DNA from: Anaerolineaceae bacterium
Lineage (GTDB): Bacteria; Chloroflexota; Anaerolineae; Anaerolineales; Anaerolineaceae
DNA: 64,000 nucleotides
NCBI GenBank assembly: GCA_012797695.1
Contig: JAAZOQ010000233.1
Span: 2,897 to 66,896 of the forward strand
Reading direction: 5' to 3'
Position 1 is the stretch's first letter; every line of letters starts with the position of its first letter. Shown here piece after piece: positions 29,786 to 39,424 of the stretch. Below the pieces are notes generated by a model that saw only the letters and a list, made by a program, of their open reading frames with translations, made no database searches and had not been told where the DNA came from. Made by a program: the position numbers and the translations under genes.

Positions 29786-29859
29786 GGGCGGGTAGCTCAG
29801 TTGGTTAGAGCGCCTCTCTTACACAGAGGAGGTCGCAGGTTCGAGTCCTGTCCCGCCCA
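29786..29859 (+). tRNA. tRNA-Val (anticodon TAC)
   Basis: Acceptor GGGCGGG/CCCGCCC, anticodon stem CCTCT/AGAGG with loop CTTACAC, T-loop TTCGAGT. Confidence 0.9.
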
Positions 29860-29875
29860 CTAGTACCTCCTATAG

Positions 29876-29938: not shown

Positions 29939-30334
29939 GGGGATGAAAGGCTTCGACGGGCGAGGCTGATCCCGGAATGCGTGCCGAGAGGTACCGACCT
30001 CGTTAACTCAGTACAAACCTTTAAGTGCCAATCGCACAAACACCTACGCAGCTCTTCCTCTCGCCGCCTAGCGTCGAAGGATCCTGCGCCTGACACCTCG
30101 GTGTCACGTCTGTCTGCTCCGCTCTCTTACCGGTAGCAGAACAGGCGTCACAAAGTAAGAGTGCCGCAATTCAAGCCGCGAGGATTGCGAAAGAGGGCTT
30201 TCGGGCCTGAGCGGATGGTCAACATCGGGTTCTGTGACTCTTCCTGACGCTGACGACACTCAAGAGGCTCTACGCATGTAGATTTCCGAGGGTTGAATCG
30301 TTCGGACGCGGGTTCAATTCCCGCCATCTCCACC
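29939..30334 (+). ncRNA. ssrA: tmRNA (SsrA), one-piece
   Basis: 5' GGGGATG pairs with 3' CATCTCC-A-CC; T-arm GCGGGTTCAATTCCCGC; internal tag frame ending ...ALPLAA-TAG. Confidence 0.88.
30027..30071 (+). other. tmRNA tag reading frame encoding ANRTNTYAALPLAA then stop
   Basis: GCC resume codon after TTTAAGT, 14 codons, TAG at 30069-30071; the hydrophobic LAA end is typical of proteolysis tags. Confidence 0.7.
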
Positions 30335-30375: not shown

Positions 30376-33617
<3,242 letters not shown>

Positions 33618-33738: not shown

Positions 33739-34104
33739 ATGTCTGGTGGAAAAATTGTTGCCATTATTGCAGCGGTTATCCTGATCCTGTTTGGAGCCTT
33801 AATGATCCTCGGTGGAACCAATTCCGCCGCCGGGGCGATTGGCTGGCTGCCCGTTGGGATCGTCTTTATTGGGATTGGATTAGTCATCATCTATTTTGCG
33901 ACCCGTCAGGCCGCCAAGGCAGCGGATAACAACGTCACCCTGAAAATAGACCTGCCAGGGAATGTATCCATGGATACCTTAAAATGCAAAAGCTGCGGGG
34001 GAACGCTGCAGCCAGAAAATATTCAAATGGTCGCAGGCGCTCCGGTAGTGACCTGCCCTTATTGCCATACGACTTATCAATTAACTGAAGAACCAAAATG
34101 GTAA
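33739..34104 (+). CDS. small membrane protein (2 TM) with a C-terminal zinc ribbon
   Basis: Two hydrophobic helices then CKSCGG...CPYCHTTY; GGAGG SD 4 nt upstream. Confidence 0.6.
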   Translation: MSGGKIVAIIAAVILILFGALMILGGTNSAAGAIGWLPVGIVFIGIGLVIIYFATRQAAKAADNNVTLKIDLPGNVSMDTLKCKSCGGTLQPENIQMVAGAPVVTCPYCHTTYQLTEEPKW

Positions 34105-34131
34105 GCGTTTATCTATCTCTGGGAGGGACGA

Positions 34132-35859
34132 ATGAAACATCTTAGGTACGTGTGTTTATTGCTGATTTTCGTTGTGCTGGCTGGGAGTGTTACCCCTGTT
34201 CATGCGCAAGATTATCGCTTCCAGGTACCAGAAGAATCTGCAGTTGTCACGATCAACACAGACGGTTCAATCTCAATCGATTATTCGATCACTTTTAATA
34301 ATGATTCTGGAGCGCATGCCATCGATGTAGTCGATATCGGCATGCCAAACTCAGATTACGTCTTGAAATCCATCACGGCCTCTGTGGATGGTTATCAGCT
34401 TAGCCGTATTACCAAGTCAGATTACGTCGATCCGGGGATTTCTGTTTATCTGGATAACCGCGAAATTCCCGCCGGGGGAACAGGCACGCTGGCGGTCCAC
34501 GTAGGCACGGTCAACAACGTGATCTACCCGGCGACACAAACGGAATCAGAAAGCTACGCCAGCTTCGTCTTCTCGCCCAACTGGTTCGATAGTCAATACT
34601 GCTATGGAGATACCAACCTGCAGGTTACCCTCCTGCTGCCGGCTGGATTGCAATCCGCTGAAACCCGCTATTACACCCCCGAAGGGGGATGGCCTGGGCC
34701 AGATGAGCCCGAATCCAAAATTATGGAAGACGGGAAAATCTTCTTCACCTGGGTTTCAGATCAAGCCAATGCCTATACTGAATATAAGTTTGGAACCAGC
34801 TTCCCGGCCCGAGTACTGGCAGAAAATGCCATCGTCACTTCCCCTTATACCGGGCCAGGTACTTCTTCCACTTCTTCTTCCGGCTCAGATGGAATCAGCT
34901 TCGATACCAGTGCCATCTGTCCTTTTATCTTTTGTTTGGGCTTCATTGGTTTCTTCATCCTGATCATCTACTCTGCCACGGTCGGAGCCCAAAAACGCAA
35001 GATGCAATATCTGCCTCCAAAAATCTCGATGGAGGGACACGGCATTAAGCGCGGGTTGACGGCAGTAGAAGCAGGGATTTTGATGGAACAGCCTATGGAT
35101 AAGATCATGACCATGATCTTGTTTGGCCTGCTCAAGAAAAATGCTGCGGAAGTAGTAACAAAAGAGCCGCTGGCAGTCAAAGCAGCCGATCCGCTGCCCG
35201 CTGACCTGTATGGTTATGAGACAGATTTTCTCAGTGCCTTTACCTCGACTTCTTCTTCTGAAAAGCGCAAATTGCTGCAAAAGATGATGGTCAACCTCAT
35301 CCGCAGTGTCGGTGAAAAGATGAAGGGCTTCAGCAAGAAAGAGACCGTTGCCTTTTATCAAGATATCATGAAACGTGCCTGGGAACAGGTCGAGCAAGCC
35401 GCTACTCCAGAAGTCAAGGGACAGGTTTACGAAGACGTAATGGATTGGACCATGCTCGACAACGATTACGAGAAACGCACCACCCAGACTTTCAGCGGGC
35501 CAGTATTCATTCCGACTCCAAGCTGGTGGTGGCGTTACGAACCCAGCTATCCACGGACGGTTTCCGCGGCTCCAGTTTCCACCGCAGGGTCCTCCACTTC
35601 GTCAGGGAGCGGTGGACGGGTATCGCTGCCTTCACTCCCGGGTTCCGCGTTTGCCGCCTCTGTCGTGGGCAGTGTTCAGAATTTCTCGACCAACGTATTG
35701 GGGAATCTGACCTCTTTTACCAGCGGTGTAACCAACGTCACCAATCCACCCCCACCTCCCTCCACTTACCGCAGTTCTGGTGGCGGCGGTGGAAGTTCTT
35801 GCGCCTGCGCTTGTGCCTGTGCGGGATGTGCCTGCGCCTGTGCTGGCGGTGGCCGCTAA
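34132..35859 (+). CDS. DUF2207-like single-pass membrane protein with a C-terminal (Cys-Ala)n tail
   Basis: Signal peptide ending VHAQ; N-terminal DYRFQVPEESAVVTINTDGSISIDYSITF and post-TM GLTAVEAGILME...ILFGLLKK resemble DUF2207 signatures; ends GGGGGSSCACACACAGCACACAGGGR. Confidence 0.7.
   Translation: MKHLRYVCLLLIFVVLAGSVTPVHAQDYRFQVPEESAVVTINTDGSISIDYSITFNNDSGAHAIDVVDIGMPNSDYVLKSITASVDGYQLSRITKSDYVDPGISVYLDNREIPAGGTGTLAVHVGTVNNVIYPATQTESESYASFVFSPNWFDSQYCYGDTNLQVTLLLPAGLQSAETRYYTPEGGWPGPDEPESKIMEDGKIFFTWVSDQANAYTEYKFGTSFPARVLAENAIVTSPYTGPGTSSTSSSGSDGISFDTSAICPFIFCLGFIGFFILIIYSATVGAQKRKMQYLPPKISMEGHGIKRGLTAVEAGILMEQPMDKIMTMILFGLLKKNAAEVVTKEPLAVKAADPLPADLYGYETDFLSAFTSTSSSEKRKLLQKMMVNLIRSVGEKMKGFSKKETVAFYQDIMKRAWEQVEQAATPEVKGQVYEDVMDWTMLDNDYEKRTTQTFSGPVFIPTPSWWWRYEPSYPRTVSAAPVSTAGSSTSSGSGGRVSLPSLPGSAFAASVVGSVQNFSTNVLGNLTSFTSGVTNVTNPPPPPSTYRSSGGGGGSSCACACACAGCACACAGGGR
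35800..35844 (+). repeat. imperfect TGY-GCN hexanucleotide repeat encoding CACACACAGCACACA
   Basis: TGC GCC TGC GCT TGT GCC TGT GCG GGA TGT GCC TGC GCC TGT GCT read in the frame of the 34132 gene. Confidence 0.9.
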
Positions 35860-35876
35860 AGAAAGCATCTTATTTT

Positions 35877-37241
35877 ATGTCAGTAAAGAGTTCTTTCGCT
35901 CGATTGGCTCATCGTTCACCAGTGGCAGCATTGCCTGCCACTGGTGTCTACCATTTTCTGCGTGAATCCGACGCCGAAAAAAGCCGCATTCACCTGCGTC
36001 TCGATCCGGATGGCACAGGAACTCTGATCATCAATGCCAATCGCATCTTTCACTTGAACCCCACAGCGGCCCTGATGGCTTATTACTCGCTTGCCCGTAC
36101 TGACGAAACCGCTGCCGTGAAAGCCTTCGAAAAGCAATATCAGGTCAGCCGCAGTCAAGCGCAGCAAGATTTTGCTCAATTCCGTTCTGAACTGGAAGCA
36201 CTGATCTCGCCAGAGACCTGCCCCATTTGCGATCTTGATCTTGAAACAACTGCACCATTCAGCAGTTCACCCACAGCGCCCTATCGAATGGATCTGGCCC
36301 TGACTTATCGCTGCAATAATGCCTGCGCTCATTGTTATAACGCTCGCTCACGAAATTATCCGGAATTAAAAACCGAAGATTGGTACCAGATTCTGGATCG
36401 TCTCTGGGAACTGGGAATTCCCCACATCGTTTTCACGGGCGGGGAACCTACCCTGCGTGATGACCTTCCAGAATTGATTCACCATGCCGAGCAGAATGGG
36501 CAAATCACCGGTCTGAATACCAATGGTCGGCGTATGAAAGACCCGGTTTACGTGCAGCAATTGATCGATGCTGGTCTGGATCACGTCCAGATCACCCTCG
36601 AAAGTCACCGCGCTGAGATTCACGACAAAATGGTCAACGCGACTGGCGCCTGGCAAGAAACTGTCGCCGGGGTCAAAAATGCAGTGAATTCCCGGCTGTA
36701 CGTGATGACCAACACCACGATGCTGAAATGGAATGCTCCTTTTCTGACCGACACGCTGGAATTTTTGGGGCAACTGGGGTTGAAAACCGTAGGGCTGAAT
36801 GCCTTGATTTATTCAGGGCGAGGCAAAACCGTGGGTACCGGCCTCTCCGAGTCAGAACTAATGCCGCTTCTCGACATCGCCAAGCAAGTCACCGAAAAAT
36901 ATAAGCAAAGATTGATCTGGTACACTCCCACAGAGTACTGCCATTTCGATCCGGTGCAAATGCAGTTGGGAGTCAAAGGCTGTACTGCAGCCCTGTATAA
37001 CATGTGCATCGAACCTGATGGCAGCGTGATCCCCTGCCAATCCTATTATCAAAGTCTGGGAAAACTGCTCGAGAATTCTTGGAATTCCATCTGGAACCAC
37101 CCACTCTCACAAAAGTTGCGCAACCGCCAGGGATTGCCTGAAAAATGTCATTCCTGCCTGCTGGTGCAGGAATGCGGCGGCGGCTGCCCGTTAAAATTCG
37201 AGTCTATTTCATTTGAAAGCTCTTCACAGGAGGGTTTATGA
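35877..37241 (+). CDS. radical SAM/SPASM enzyme with an N-terminal PqqD-like RiPP recognition element
   Basis: CNNACAHC (CX3CX2C), FTGGEPTLR, SPASM cysteines C..C.....C...C (CHSCLLVQECGGGC) and upstream GCTAA...PDGSVIPC; N-terminus LIINANRIFHLNPTAALMAYY...SQAQQDFAQF is PqqD-like; start chosen as the first ATG after the upstream stop. Confidence 0.85.
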   Translation: MSVKSSFARLAHRSPVAALPATGVYHFLRESDAEKSRIHLRLDPDGTGTLIINANRIFHLNPTAALMAYYSLARTDETAAVKAFEKQYQVSRSQAQQDFAQFRSELEALISPETCPICDLDLETTAPFSSSPTAPYRMDLALTYRCNNACAHCYNARSRNYPELKTEDWYQILDRLWELGIPHIVFTGGEPTLRDDLPELIHHAEQNGQITGLNTNGRRMKDPVYVQQLIDAGLDHVQITLESHRAEIHDKMVNATGAWQETVAGVKNAVNSRLYVMTNTTMLKWNAPFLTDTLEFLGQLGLKTVGLNALIYSGRGKTVGTGLSESELMPLLDIAKQVTEKYKQRLIWYTPTEYCHFDPVQMQLGVKGCTAALYNMCIEPDGSVIPCQSYYQSLGKLLENSWNSIWNHPLSQKLRNRQGLPEKCHSCLLVQECGGGCPLKFESISFESSSQEGL

Positions 37242-38401
37242 AAGTTCGCATTCGCTCGATTTTCGATAAATTATTCTTCACTCCCAAGCCATTTCCTCCT
37301 GGCAATTACCAAGCCACCCTTACCAACGAAGATGGCTCGCCATTGCGGCTGCATCTGCGGGTTGAGAAAGATGGTTTGGGCTTATTGATCGTCAACGCCT
37401 CCACCATTCTTCACCTCAATCAAACTGCGACCGAGATCGCATATCATCTCATTCAAAATACCCCAGCAGAAGAAGCCATTCAGGAAATGCTCAAACGTTA
37501 TCGTTCGAGCTACACTGAAATCCACGATGACTTCAAGAACATGAAGATCCGCCTGACCTCCCTGCTGAACACCCCCGATCTTGACCCCGAAACTTTTCTG
37601 GATATCGAACGCGTTGACCTGCACGGACAAGAAATCTCTGCTCCCCTGCGCCTGGATTGCGCGTTAACTTACCAGCTTTCCAGCGGGGAAGCCAGCATCT
37701 ATGCCCCAACGGATCGGGTAGCCCGTAACCTCGACAGCGAGGAATGGAAAAAGATTCTGGAAAAAGCCTGGGCAGCTGGAATTCCGCACATCGTTTTTAC
37801 CGGCGGCGAGCCCACGCTGCGGCCAGATCTACCCGAACTGATCGAACATGCAGAACAATTGGGGCAAGTCACCGGGGTAATCAGCGATGGCTTACGCTTC
37901 ACAGAAAAAGATTATCTCGAGTCGCTCTTAAAAGCCGGTCTGGACCACATTCTCTTTATCTTGAACCCGGAAGAAGAACATTCCTGGGAAGCTTTGCGGG
38001 ATGTACTCGGAGAAGACGTCTTTACCACTGTCCATCTCACGGTAACTGCAAACAGACCTCTGGATGCCAGTTCCCTGCTGCCAAAGCTCTCTGAAATGGG
38101 AGTGAATTCACTCTCTCTCAGCACAGATGAACCAGAGATGCAAAAAACACTGGCTGCCATTCAACAAAAGGCCACCGAAAATGGTTTCACGCTGGTCTGG
38201 GATCTGCCAGTACCCTATTCCAGAAACAACCCCATCAGCCTGGAAATGGAATCCGCGGAATCACACAAAGAAGGAGCAGGCCACACCTGGCTCTACGTGG
38301 AACCGGATGGTGAAGTATTACCCGGTCAGGGCATCAACCGGGTGCTCGGCAACTTCCTGACCTCTGAATGGGAAGAAATCTGGCTGAACGCACGGAAATA
38401 A
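37238..38401 (+). CDS. pseudo-radical-SAM paralog (RRE + TIM-barrel core, all Fe-S cysteines lost)
   Basis: Aligns by eye with the upstream gene (GIPHIVFTGGEPTLR.DLPELI.HAEQ.GQ.TG, AGLDH) but has LTYQLSSGEASIY in place of LTYRCNNACAHCY and no SPASM cysteines; ATGA overlap with the upstream stop. Confidence 0.75.
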   Translation: MKVRIRSIFDKLFFTPKPFPPGNYQATLTNEDGSPLRLHLRVEKDGLGLLIVNASTILHLNQTATEIAYHLIQNTPAEEAIQEMLKRYRSSYTEIHDDFKNMKIRLTSLLNTPDLDPETFLDIERVDLHGQEISAPLRLDCALTYQLSSGEASIYAPTDRVARNLDSEEWKKILEKAWAAGIPHIVFTGGEPTLRPDLPELIEHAEQLGQVTGVISDGLRFTEKDYLESLLKAGLDHILFILNPEEEHSWEALRDVLGEDVFTTVHLTVTANRPLDASSLLPKLSEMGVNSLSLSTDEPEMQKTLAAIQQKATENGFTLVWDLPVPYSRNNPISLEMESAESHKEGAGHTWLYVEPDGEVLPGQGINRVLGNFLTSEWEEIWLNARK

Positions 38402-39165
38402 TGGCCTTTTCTCTCGATCAATGGCACGCAAGGTACCTTGAGCAGGCGCAATGGACTGCCCCCTTGCGTGCTTTTCTTTTGCAGCAGCTTTCGTTACCTG
38501 CTCAGGCGCGCGTGCTCGAGACTGGATGCGGTACTGGTGCACTCTTCCCGAATAGGTCACAACTCAGCAATTATGAATGGTACGGCATCGATATCGCACC
38601 CGAGCGTTGTGCCTTTGCTCAAAAAGGAAACCCTGCCGCCATTATTTCTTGTGCAGAGGGCATTCGCTTGCCCTTTGCGAATGCCACGTTTGACCTCACC
38701 TTCTGCCATTATTACCTGCTGTGGATGAATAACGCTGCGCTGCCGGCTCTGCGGGAAATGGCGCGGGTTACCCGGCCAGGGGGTTACGTGATGGCCATGG
38801 CTGAGCCAGACTATGCTGCCCGCATCGACTTCCCGGCAGAAACCGCACAACTTGGGCAACTGCAAAACTCTTCCCTGCAGAAACAAGGAGCCGCACTGGA
38901 TATGGGGCGGCGATTACCCGAACTGTTTCGCCAGGCGGGGATCAGCGAAATTCAGTTTGGACAGAGCGGTTTTCAGCGCGAGGTCACGGGGACGCCGCAA
39001 TGGCTTGATTCTGAATGGAAAGTAATCGCTCAAGACCTGGCAGACACCCTCCCCCCTCAAGAAATTGCTCACCTAGAACGTCTGGATCGCCAACACTGGC
39101 AGAAAGGCAGCCGGGTGTTGCAGATCCCAACTTTCTATGCTTATGGCAAAGTGAAAGCTGAGTGA
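38401..39165 (+). CDS. class I SAM-dependent methyltransferase
   Basis: Motif I VLETGCGTGAL, post-I WYGIDI, RPGGYV; ATG shares a base with the upstream TAA (TAATG). Confidence 0.8.
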   Translation: MAFSLDQWHARYLEQAQWTAPLRAFLLQQLSLPAQARVLETGCGTGALFPNRSQLSNYEWYGIDIAPERCAFAQKGNPAAIISCAEGIRLPFANATFDLTFCHYYLLWMNNAALPALREMARVTRPGGYVMAMAEPDYAARIDFPAETAQLGQLQNSSLQKQGAALDMGRRLPELFRQAGISEIQFGQSGFQREVTGTPQWLDSEWKVIAQDLADTLPPQEIAHLERLDRQHWQKGSRVLQIPTFYAYGKVKAE

Positions 39166-39225: not shown

Positions 39226-39254
39226 TTGACGCCCCCCTACCCCTATGGTAAACT
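39226..39254 (+). promoter_or_regulatory. candidate promoter of tRNA-Asp
   Basis: TTGACG - 17 nt - TAAACT, -10 ends 11 nt before the tRNA. Confidence 0.55.
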
Positions 39255-39265
39255 ATTGTCTGTTC

Positions 39266-39338
39266 GGGGGCGTGGTGTAGCGGCTAACATGCGGCCCTGT
39301 CAAGGCCGAGATCGCGGGTTCGAACCCCGTCGCTCCCG
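39266..39338 (+). tRNA. tRNA-Asp (anticodon GTC)
   Basis: Acceptor GGGGGCG/CGCTCCC, anticodon stem CGGCC/GGCCG with loop CTGTCAA, T-arm GCGGG-TTCGAAC-CCCGT. Confidence 0.9.
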
Positions 39339-39352
39339 CCTGAACAAGAAAA

Positions 39353-39380
39353 TGACTGCCTTCGAGGCAGTTATTTTTTT
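39353..39380 (+). terminator. terminator after tRNA-Asp
   Basis: ACTGCCT-TCG-AGGCAGT followed by TATTTTTTT. Confidence 0.7.
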
Positions 39381-39424
39381 ATCCGGTATAATCACAGCAG
39401 AAATTCATTACAGGAGGAAAATGC

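Follow-up and report, generated by a model that had tools for sequence, protein, structure and literature searches.

A gene cluster of Anaerolineae and Bathyarchaeia pairs a radical SAM/SPASM enzyme with a Cys-Ala-tailed membrane protein, its proposed substrate

The analysed stretch, hereafter the window, comprises 64,000 nt from an Anaerolineaceae bacterium (contig JAAZOQ010000233.1, positions 2,897 to 66,896), and the sequence statements of a preliminary description of this DNA were all checked against it. At positions 33739-39165 it contains five co-directional genes on the plus strand, labelled g1 to g5. Two of them are central to this study, i.e. g2, encoding a membrane protein that ends in a tail of alternating Cys and Ala residues, and g3, encoding a radical S-adenosylmethionine (SAM) enzyme with a SPASM domain and a recognition element of the type found in maturases of peptides that are made by ribosomes and then modified post-translationally (RiPPs), the RiPP recognition element (RRE). 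The gaps are 27 nt between g1 and g2 and 17 nt between g2 and g3, while g3 and g4 overlap by 4 nt (ATGA) and g4 and g5 by 1 nt (TAATG), exactly as given in a preliminary description of this DNA. For g5, translation could also begin at the in-frame ATG at 38368. The scan for promoters and terminators inside the cluster yielded no signal exceeding that of shuffled sequences. The five open reading frames (ORFs) and the tail are as follows:

33739-34104, plus strand: g1, 121 amino acids (aa), two predicted transmembrane segments
34132-35859, plus strand: g2, 575 aa, single-pass membrane protein, proposed substrate
35800-35856, plus strand: g2 tail CACACACAGCACACAGGGR, residues 557-575 (direct reading), proposed modification site (core)
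35877-37241, plus strand: g3, 454 aa, RRE-radical SAM-SPASM enzyme, proposed catalyst
37238-38401, plus strand: g4, 387 aa, paralog of g3 lacking the cluster ligands, proposed non-catalytic partner or adaptor
38401-39165, plus strand: g5, 254 aa, class I SAM-dependent methyltransferase, candidate for accessory tailoring

The C-terminal end of g2 reads ...GGGGGSSCACACACAGCACACAGGGR, followed by the stop codon. Its last 19 residues have the composition (Cys-Ala)4-Gly-(Cys-Ala)3-Gly3-Arg. For comparison, we collected the tails of 75 genes, i.e. 74 ORFs from related loci and the window gene. The tail is identical in 73 of them, and the sole amino-acid change is a replacement of Gly9 by Ser in the remaining two. 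All 75 tail-coding DNA sequences differ, and the Cys, Ala, Gly, and Arg codon positions each use all or nearly all synonymous codons, so that the synonymous sites are saturated. Therefore, selection acts on the peptide. The possibility that the tail is a DNA or RNA repeat element of the type (TGY GCN)n was ruled out by the same two observations. The g2 proteins of Anaerolineae are otherwise 45-76% identical and the tail is their most conserved stretch; the extreme C-terminus is under exceptional purifying selection.

All 73 complete g2 homologs have a Cys-rich tail, and 72 of them end with CACACACA[G/S]CACACAGGGR; the one in locus L053 contains an obvious frameshift. A profile search against 1.84 billion cluster representatives showed that the g2 family comprises 1068 clusters (50% identity) at E<=1e-3, of which 415 remain when the limit is tightened to E<=1e-30. 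Among the best 150 of the 1068 representatives, about 118 have tails of the type (Cys-X)n...GGGR, and the remaining ones are fragments or frameshifted calls. The variants include Cys blocks of 3+3, 3+4, and 2+4, an uninterrupted (CA)5, two-residue linkers DS and VS, and a three-block form. The archaeal homologs listed, 119 of 119 with the query excluded, end with CVCAC-xx-CACACAC-V[S/G]-CACACA-GGG[A/G][R/H] or a close variant. The two-residue linkers (AG, VS, VG, DS, HA) would permit tight turns and could bring all thiols to the same side of a hairpin or meander, a geometry that would fit cross-linking or metal binding alike.

A genome scan with an alignment of g4 retrieved 80 loci, all from Anaerolineae/Chloroflexota, including Levilinea saccharolytica and Bellilinea caldifistulae. 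The ORFs of these loci were labelled with the window proteins, and the order g1-g2-g3-g4-g5 was found almost everywhere. When the counts are restricted to loci whose flanking sequence is long enough, 56 of 57 contain g2, 64 of 66 contain g3, and 61 of 62 contain g5 within 3.5 kb downstream of g4; g1 lies upstream of g2 in 55 of 56. For comparison, ligA, which flanks the cluster in the window, is adjacent in only 28 of 54 loci, showing that the surroundings were rearranged but the cluster itself was retained. In two loci (L055 and L068) g4 and g5 stand alone. Judged from the sequences, the five-gene arrangement with its near-invariant tail is far beyond chance.

The preliminary description had found no small precursor ORF in or around the operon. 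We clustered the ORFs of 20-110 aa that lie in the cluster or within 1.5 kb on either side in about 60 loci. Only reading frames running across the tRNA-Asp gene recur, and no small precursor gene is conserved within the cluster or 1.5 kb around it in these loci. A hidden small precursor was therefore rejected.

To go beyond the Anaerolineae, divergent g2 homologs were used to retrieve nine distinct genomic contexts:

L081: archaeal contig; the cluster includes partial proteins named Aigarchaeota
L082/83: archaeal contig; Alba and TBP nearby
L089: archaeal contig; Nre nearby
L090: archaeal contig; a cluster member is named Bathyarchaeia
L091: archaeal contig; tRNA-intron endonuclease and IF-2B nearby
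L084: high-GC bacterial contig; order g1-g3-g4'-g2-g5
L085/86: two tandem tailed g2 paralogs
L087: g1-g2-g2-g3, with a g5-like methyltransferase on the opposite strand
L088: C-terminus of g3, then the gene for P0385 (486-3332), then a g5-like methyltransferase gene

A g3 ortholog adjoins g2 in seven of the nine contexts, including all five of the Bathyarchaeia type. Together with the counts in Anaerolineae, this shows that the radical SAM orthologs usually stand beside a Cys-tailed protein, in line with the earlier proposal. The five Bathyarchaeia-type contexts contain g1-g2-g3 without g4 or g5, and have nothing else in common. The archaeal g2 is 29% identical to the window protein over 539 residues, and the archaeal g3 45% over 430 residues, including the RRE. 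P0385, also found in a second source (P0397), is a natural fusion of 948 aa. It consists of a g4-like RRE and degenerate barrel without CX3CX2C (residues 21-326), a signal-anchor, and a complete g2 that ends with CACACAGCACACACAGGGR; in this single polypeptide the pseudo-enzyme with its RRE and the tail are both predicted to face the cytoplasm. The linkage of g3 and g2 holds across two domains of life, a permutation of the gene order, and one fusion. Because the archaeal contexts carry g1-g2-g3 without g4 and g5, the conserved core is the trio g1-g2-g3, with g4 and g5 as accessories in Anaerolineae and some other bacteria.

The putative catalyst g3 has the following features:

35979-36206, plus strand: PqqD-like RRE, residues about 35-110 (PF05402 match at 46-107; SkfB aligns from residue 35)
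36312-36335, plus strand: CX3CX2C motif, C146/C150/C153 (direct reading; invariant in orthologs)
36939-37187, plus strand: SPASM region with C355, C369, C377, C387, C424, C427, C433, and C437 (direct reading and Pfam)

The comparisons used Pfam (2025) and NCBIfam (release 20, June 2026). Three Pfam domains of g3 score above their gathering cut-offs, i.e. PqqD (PF05402; 26.1 bits versus 23.4), Radical_SAM (91.3 versus 29.5), and SPASM (PF13186; 39.8 versus 21.5). The eight Cys residues of the SPASM region, including the motif C424-X2-C427-X5-C433-X3-C437, are all invariant in the ortholog alignment. The domains that the preliminary description had read from the motifs of g3 were thus recovered by hidden Markov models (HMMs), unlike the DUF2207 domain expected for g2 (see below). 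None of the NCBIfam equivalogs (including NirJ2, PqqE, AhbD, MftC, SkfB, AlbA, StsB, ScmE/F, and GeoRSP) reaches its cut-off with g3. The best scores are 139 bits for NirJ2 (cut-off 500) and 126 for PqqE (TIGR02109; cut-off 381); mycofactocin scores 93 (265) and SkfB 85 (300), and StsB and AlbA are far below their cut-offs. Among solved structures the best relative by sequence is SkfB, which aligns from the RRE through the auxiliary-cluster domain (E 3e-19), followed by PqqE; CteB aligns over nearly the full length. Because no equivalog is reached and SkfB is the best full-length solved relative, g3 appears to represent a new subfamily of RRE-radical SAM/SPASM peptide maturases.

The proposed substrate g2 was modelled with AlphaFold2 (mean predicted local distance difference test (pLDDT) score 70). 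A signal-like segment at the N-terminus is followed by these parts:

34219-34806, plus strand: ectodomain, residues 30-225, a beta-sandwich (AlphaFold2, pLDDT about 85-95)
34915-34995, plus strand: transmembrane helix, residues 262-288 (AlphaFold2), followed by a basic QKRKMQ stretch
35008-35541, plus strand: cytoplasmic domain, residues about 293-470 (AlphaFold2 and conservation)
35629-35748, plus strand: pre-tail segment, residues about 500-539, LPSLPGSAFAAS...F..G.T..TNP.P (conservation and AlphaFold2)

The signal-like segment and the single predicted helix agree with the earlier reading of g2 as a protein with a signal peptide and one transmembrane segment. K288, R289, and K290 at the end of the helix are invariant in the alignment. 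Because a signal peptide, one transmembrane helix, and the KRK stretch follow each other, the C-terminal half including the tail is predicted to be cytoplasmic by the positive-inside rule; the cytoplasm is the compartment in which radical SAM enzymes work. A role of the tail as a sortase- or exosortase-type sorting signal (C-terminal anchor) was dropped, as it follows a cytoplasmic domain of 290 residues and is paired with a radical SAM enzyme of the cytoplasm instead of a protease of the membrane. The cytoplasmic domain has a conserved YLPPKI..EG.GIKRGLT..EA motif, and the model contains a winged-helix-like part and a helical bundle (residues about 311-470); this domain is conserved in the archaeal homolog. 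The pre-tail consensus of the Anaerolineae is LP.LPGS.FAAS...F..G.T..TNP.P, with P500, P503, G504, F507, A508, F518, G524, F529, T534, T537, N538, and P539 being invariant. The archaeal homologs keep the segment LPG.DFA. The model predicts helices at 504-522 and 526-537 and disorder for the Gly/Ser linker and the tail. The pre-tail segment is a candidate for a "leader-like" recognition region.

No HMM support was found for the label "DUF2207-like" that had been given to g2. At E<=0.01 the protein matches no Pfam family, and NCBIfam returned nothing. Membership in DUF2207 (PF09972) was rejected, as none of 16 diverse members of the g2 family matches it at E<=10 and only chance matches, e.g. Condensin2nSMC, were obtained. 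The Pfam column is empty for all 240 g2 homologs listed, and where names are given they are just "hypothetical protein". With Foldseek, the ectodomain resembles the N-terminal domain of M1 aminopeptidases. The top whole-chain matches are structures of a human oligosaccharyltransferase OST-A subunit of 560-580 residues (8b6l_O, 8pn9_E, 6s7o_E), with a TM-score of only 0.24; judging by its length, this subunit would be ribophorin I. It shares with g2 the layout of a luminal beta-sandwich, a single transmembrane helix, and a cytosolic helical bundle, which we treat as a lead only. Tandem g2 paralogs, each with its own Cys-Ala tail, occur in three loci (L039:2283-6369, L085:10001-13602, L087:273-3571). 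Forms of about 770 aa with a duplicated ectodomain also exist (g2 variants and paralogs listed: P0242, P0243, P0248, P0251).

The preliminary description had left g1 uninterpreted; by its distribution it is the first gene of the conserved core trio, since it also precedes g2 in all five distinct archaeal contexts. Behind the two predicted transmembrane segments, the C-terminal part of g1 is a zinc ribbon of the form CxxC...CxxC, which we place in the cytoplasm, and the protein ends with EEPKW; its matches in Pfam and NCBIfam are weak zinc-ribbon ones only. The alignment of bacterial and archaeal copies shows that the four zinc-ribbon Cys and the EEPxW at the extreme C-terminus are invariant:

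33985-34065, plus strand: zinc-ribbon cysteines of g1, C83, C86, C106, and C109 (invariant alignment columns)
L081:8571-8924; L082:9660-10007; L089:7669-8007: archaeal g1 copies, 112-117 aa

The sequences of g4 and g3 are 33% identical over 383 residues (E 1e-65). All three radical SAM Cys and all SPASM Cys are replaced in g4, while the FTGGEPTL motif and the RRE-like N-terminus are retained. These features are consistent with the earlier reading of g4 as a catalytically dead tandem paralog of g3. Pfam returned a partial Radical_SAM match (53 bits) and a PqqD match below the threshold (17.4 bits). The AlphaFold2 model (pLDDT 73) has an N-terminal domain of four strands and three helices and a partial barrel. 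Its best structural matches are SkfB (382 of 383 columns, TM-score 0.58), SuiB, and PqqE, those to SkfB and SuiB extending over the whole chain including the RRE, and g4 is a full-fold, cluster-less derivative of g3. Homologs of g4 number in the thousands; identities are 53-96% among the closest 120, and the named ones are called Anaerolineae or Chloroflexi. The paralog g4' of L084 (5636-6928) lacks CX3CX2C and retains the C-terminal CX2CX5CX3C SPASM motif, and it may mark a step on the way from an intact to a fully decayed paralog.

The protein g5 had been described as a SAM methyltransferase, and Pfam indeed assigns it a class I Rossmann-type SAM-binding domain (Methyltransf_11, 58.8 bits versus 21.2; Methyltransf_25, 55 versus 27). 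None of the NCBIfam equivalogs is reached; BioC scores 54.7 bits versus 185, and the second-best similarity, the DVU_1556 methyltransferase family, 53 versus 155. It may belong to a second conserved module. Directly before g5, C_GCAxxG_C_C-type and phosphatase-like proteins are encoded in one Anaerolineae subclade. In one subclade an insert of three genes of lipid type lies between g3 and g4, with the cluster order intact; by ORF reading, two of the products resemble a CDP-alcohol phosphatidyltransferase and an acyltransferase, respectively, and the third is a small membrane protein. The inserts are located as follows:

L056:11333-13417; L069:11746-13081; L075:12103-13162; L080:11750-12757: C_GCAxxG_C_C-type and phosphatase-like insert
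L029:7802-9942; L033:7836-9952; L039:7799-9957; L054:3925-6062; L057:7817-9942: lipid-type insert

Comparative genomics supports the earlier proposal that the tail of g2 is modified; gene content, motifs, folds, conservation, and linkage are what the analysis shows, and from these we infer the pairing of enzyme and substrate, the chemistry, and the roles of g1, g4, and g5. We consider it fairly likely that the cluster encodes a conserved, uncharacterised protein-maturation system in which g3 modifies the cytoplasmic tail of g2. The RRE of g3 would bind the conserved pre-tail region, and g3 would apply 5'-deoxyadenosyl radical chemistry to the Cys-Ala tail while it is still attached to the protein. 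The likeliest product would be thioether cross-links from Cys sulfur to carbon, which would hold the two Cys-X blocks together as a rigid hairpin. Thioethers are the leading candidate because the closest full-length relatives of g3 are thioether synthases, the substrate is Cys-rich, and the non-Cys positions of the tail are invariant, as would be expected for reaction sites or tightly packed residues, but not for a plain metal site. Nevertheless, this specific chemistry is put forward tentatively, and we regard it as rather doubtful. With its fold and RRE but without iron-sulfur ligands, g4 is probably a non-catalytic adaptor that holds g2, because the two are combined in the P0385 fusion and g4 stays with g2 in L064 and L071. 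Probably, g5 adds a tailoring methylation. In its broadest form, the proposal is a housekeeping-type modification common to Bacteria (Anaerolineae and others) and Archaea (Bathyarchaeia), i.e. a cross-linked and/or metal-holding tail that stays on the protein and would form a new structural class of RiPP-like, protein-tethered cofactors, with the cluster-less paralog as a chaperone; our confidence in this wider version is slightly less than even.

Several points weigh against a tail modification by g3. Both the modification and its chemistry are inferred. The top NCBIfam similarities of the catalytic core of g3 are NirJ2, PqqE, and AhbD, not sactisynthases. L064 and L071 contain g1-g2-g4 without an adjacent g3, L044 contains g3...g4 without g1 and g2, and the tandem g2 paralogs of L085/86 have no adjacent g3. 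The missing partners may be encoded elsewhere in these genomes, or the link may not be obligatory. In addition, most of the 80 loci are from related Anaerolineae and hence are not independent samples. Finally, CxC repeats are classic thiolate ligands, and the system may be a metal-binding site.

This last possibility leads to the strongest competitor, in which the tail is a metallothionein-like metal or iron-sulfur module, and g3 assembles, inserts, or alters a metallocluster or its ligand, or the tail supplies metal or sulfur to g3. The seven to ten Cys at strictly alternating positions, with blocks split by two-residue linkers, would suit such a module, as would the housekeeping-like occurrence throughout a whole class and organisms that are anaerobes rich in iron-sulfur proteins. 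The X positions of CxC usually vary in simple thiolate sites, whereas every Ala of the tail is invariant in bacteria. Moreover, the recognition elements of g3 and g4 are typical of peptide-modifying enzymes, and the cluster has no conserved gene for a metal chaperone or transporter; overall we consider a metal module unlikely. A true RiPP core, cleaved at the Gly-rich linker and freed as a peptide or cofactor like pyrroloquinoline quinone (PQQ) or mycofactocin, would turn g2 into an oversized precursor. The poly-Gly/Ser linker directly before the tail recalls double-glycine leader junctions, and the combination of RRE and SPASM is that of cofactor maturases of the PqqE and MftC type. Yet neither bacterial nor archaeal clusters contain a conserved protease or exporter, a membrane protein of 550 aa whose ectodomain and cytoplasmic domain are conserved (29% identity across domains of life) is hardly a disposable leader, and the fusion of a g4-like protein to g2 fits a stable complex, so that release of the core appears very improbable.

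The similarity of g3 to NirJ2, AhbD, and PqqE, which give the highest NCBIfam scores of its core, could also indicate a small-molecule substrate (a tetrapyrrole, a lipid, or another cofactor), with g1 and g2 serving as a membrane scaffold or as regulators and the tail having a role of its own. The lipid-synthesis genes between g3 and g4 point in the same direction, but they are limited to one subclade. The scores are far below the cut-offs, and the matches of NirJ and AhbD begin only at residue 142 of g3, whereas the RRE-containing N-terminus aligns with SkfB. We regard a small-molecule substrate as quite improbable. The adjacency of the genes could, in principle, be inherited synteny without a functional link, as synteny in many Anaerolineae loci extends to ligA and an RlmI-like gene. 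This is strongly disfavoured and extremely improbable in our view, as about half of the loci keep the cluster without an adjacent ligA, Archaea have the trio as well, the gene order is permuted in L084, and a domain fusion exists. Modification of the g2 tail by g3 is the reading that we compare with known systems in the following.

In its mode of action the system would resemble RRE-dependent radical SAM/SPASM pathways to RiPPs, yet it lacks the separate short precursor that defines them. With the sactipeptide and ranthipeptide maturases SkfB, AlbA, and CteB, g3 shares the architecture of a PqqD-like RRE, a CX3CX2C barrel, and an auxiliary-cluster domain, and their substrates are Cys-rich like the g2 tail. 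In those systems, the precursor is separate and short, whereas the candidate core is here the C-terminus of a membrane protein of about 575 aa. RiPP cores are hypervariable, in contrast to a tail that is invariant across a bacterial class, and the g1-g5 cluster contains neither protease nor exporter. In PqqE/PqqD and MftC/MftB, PqqD-type recognition is combined with SPASM radical SAM chemistry that acts on the C-terminal end of a substrate peptide, and PqqE is the second-best match of g3 in both NCBIfam and the PDB. Their substrates are short peptides with Glu/Tyr or Val-Tyr, and the g2 tail has neither. The halobacterial pseudo-SAM/SPASM protein TIGR04347 is, like g4, a radical SAM paralog without CX3CX2C beside an active enzyme. 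Nevertheless, g4 and g3 score 40.3 and 114.4 bits, respectively, against its cut-off of 525, and g4 differs in the additional loss of all SPASM Cys and the presence of an RRE-like N-terminus.

Some radical SAM-SPASM enzymes act on proteins instead of RiPP precursors. QhpD forms intra-protein thioethers in QhpC, the gamma subunit of quinohemoprotein amine dehydrogenase (PMC10114670), which is a precedent for cross-linking Cys inside a protein that stays in a functional complex. In contrast to g2, QhpC is a small soluble subunit and its Cys are linked to methylene carbons of Asp or Glu, residues that are absent from the g2 tail. No amine dehydrogenase or qhp-like genes were found near the cluster, neither in the window nor in the Anaerolineae loci. 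The anaerobic sulfatase-maturating enzyme (anSME) modifies a Cys in a full-length protein (PMC10114670). It has no RRE and recognises C/S-x-P/A-x-R in sulfatases, whereas g3 has an RRE and the tail lacks that motif; no sulfatase gene is present in the window region.

Neither the tail sequence nor a system of this organisation is described in Pfam, NCBIfam, or the searched literature, in agreement with the preliminary description, which knew of no such system. As far as genomic sequences can tell, it is well supported that the system is real, widespread, and unannotated. Work on RRE-radical SAM/SPASM enzymes has dealt nearly exclusively with their production of small secreted peptides, while the enzyme described here is tied to the C-terminal end of a large membrane protein. 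A target that is invariant within a bacterial class, with block variants in an archaeal class, points to a structural or cofactor role in the basic physiology of abundant anaerobes, not to a natural product. The 19-residue tail offers a defined and easily testable substrate for a radical SAM subfamily without an assigned reaction. Moreover, g4 would illustrate how a radical SAM paralog without catalytic activity was recruited in nature as a partner, which in one lineage is fused to the substrate. The g2 family has more than 1000 clusters (50% identity) and no annotation in any database, and the link to g3 provides a first functional handle on it.

The flanks of the cluster in the window are those of the preliminary description, with ligA upstream and a tRNA-Asp gene with a promoter-like site downstream:

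31563-33611, minus strand: ligA, upstream flank of the cluster
39226-39254: promoter-like site ahead of tRNA-Asp
39266-39340: tRNA-Asp, downstream flank, directly after g5

The position of tRNA-Asp 3' of g5 is kept in at least 13-17 related loci. ARAGORN additionally predicted a tRNA-Ser(cga) on the minus strand at 39304-39397, which overlaps tRNA-Asp and is probably a false positive. At 29939-30334 lies a tmRNA gene whose tag peptide is AQTPTQLFLSPPSVEGSCA; it is preceded by tRNA-Val (29786-29860), and the RlmI-like gene and ligA lie downstream of it.

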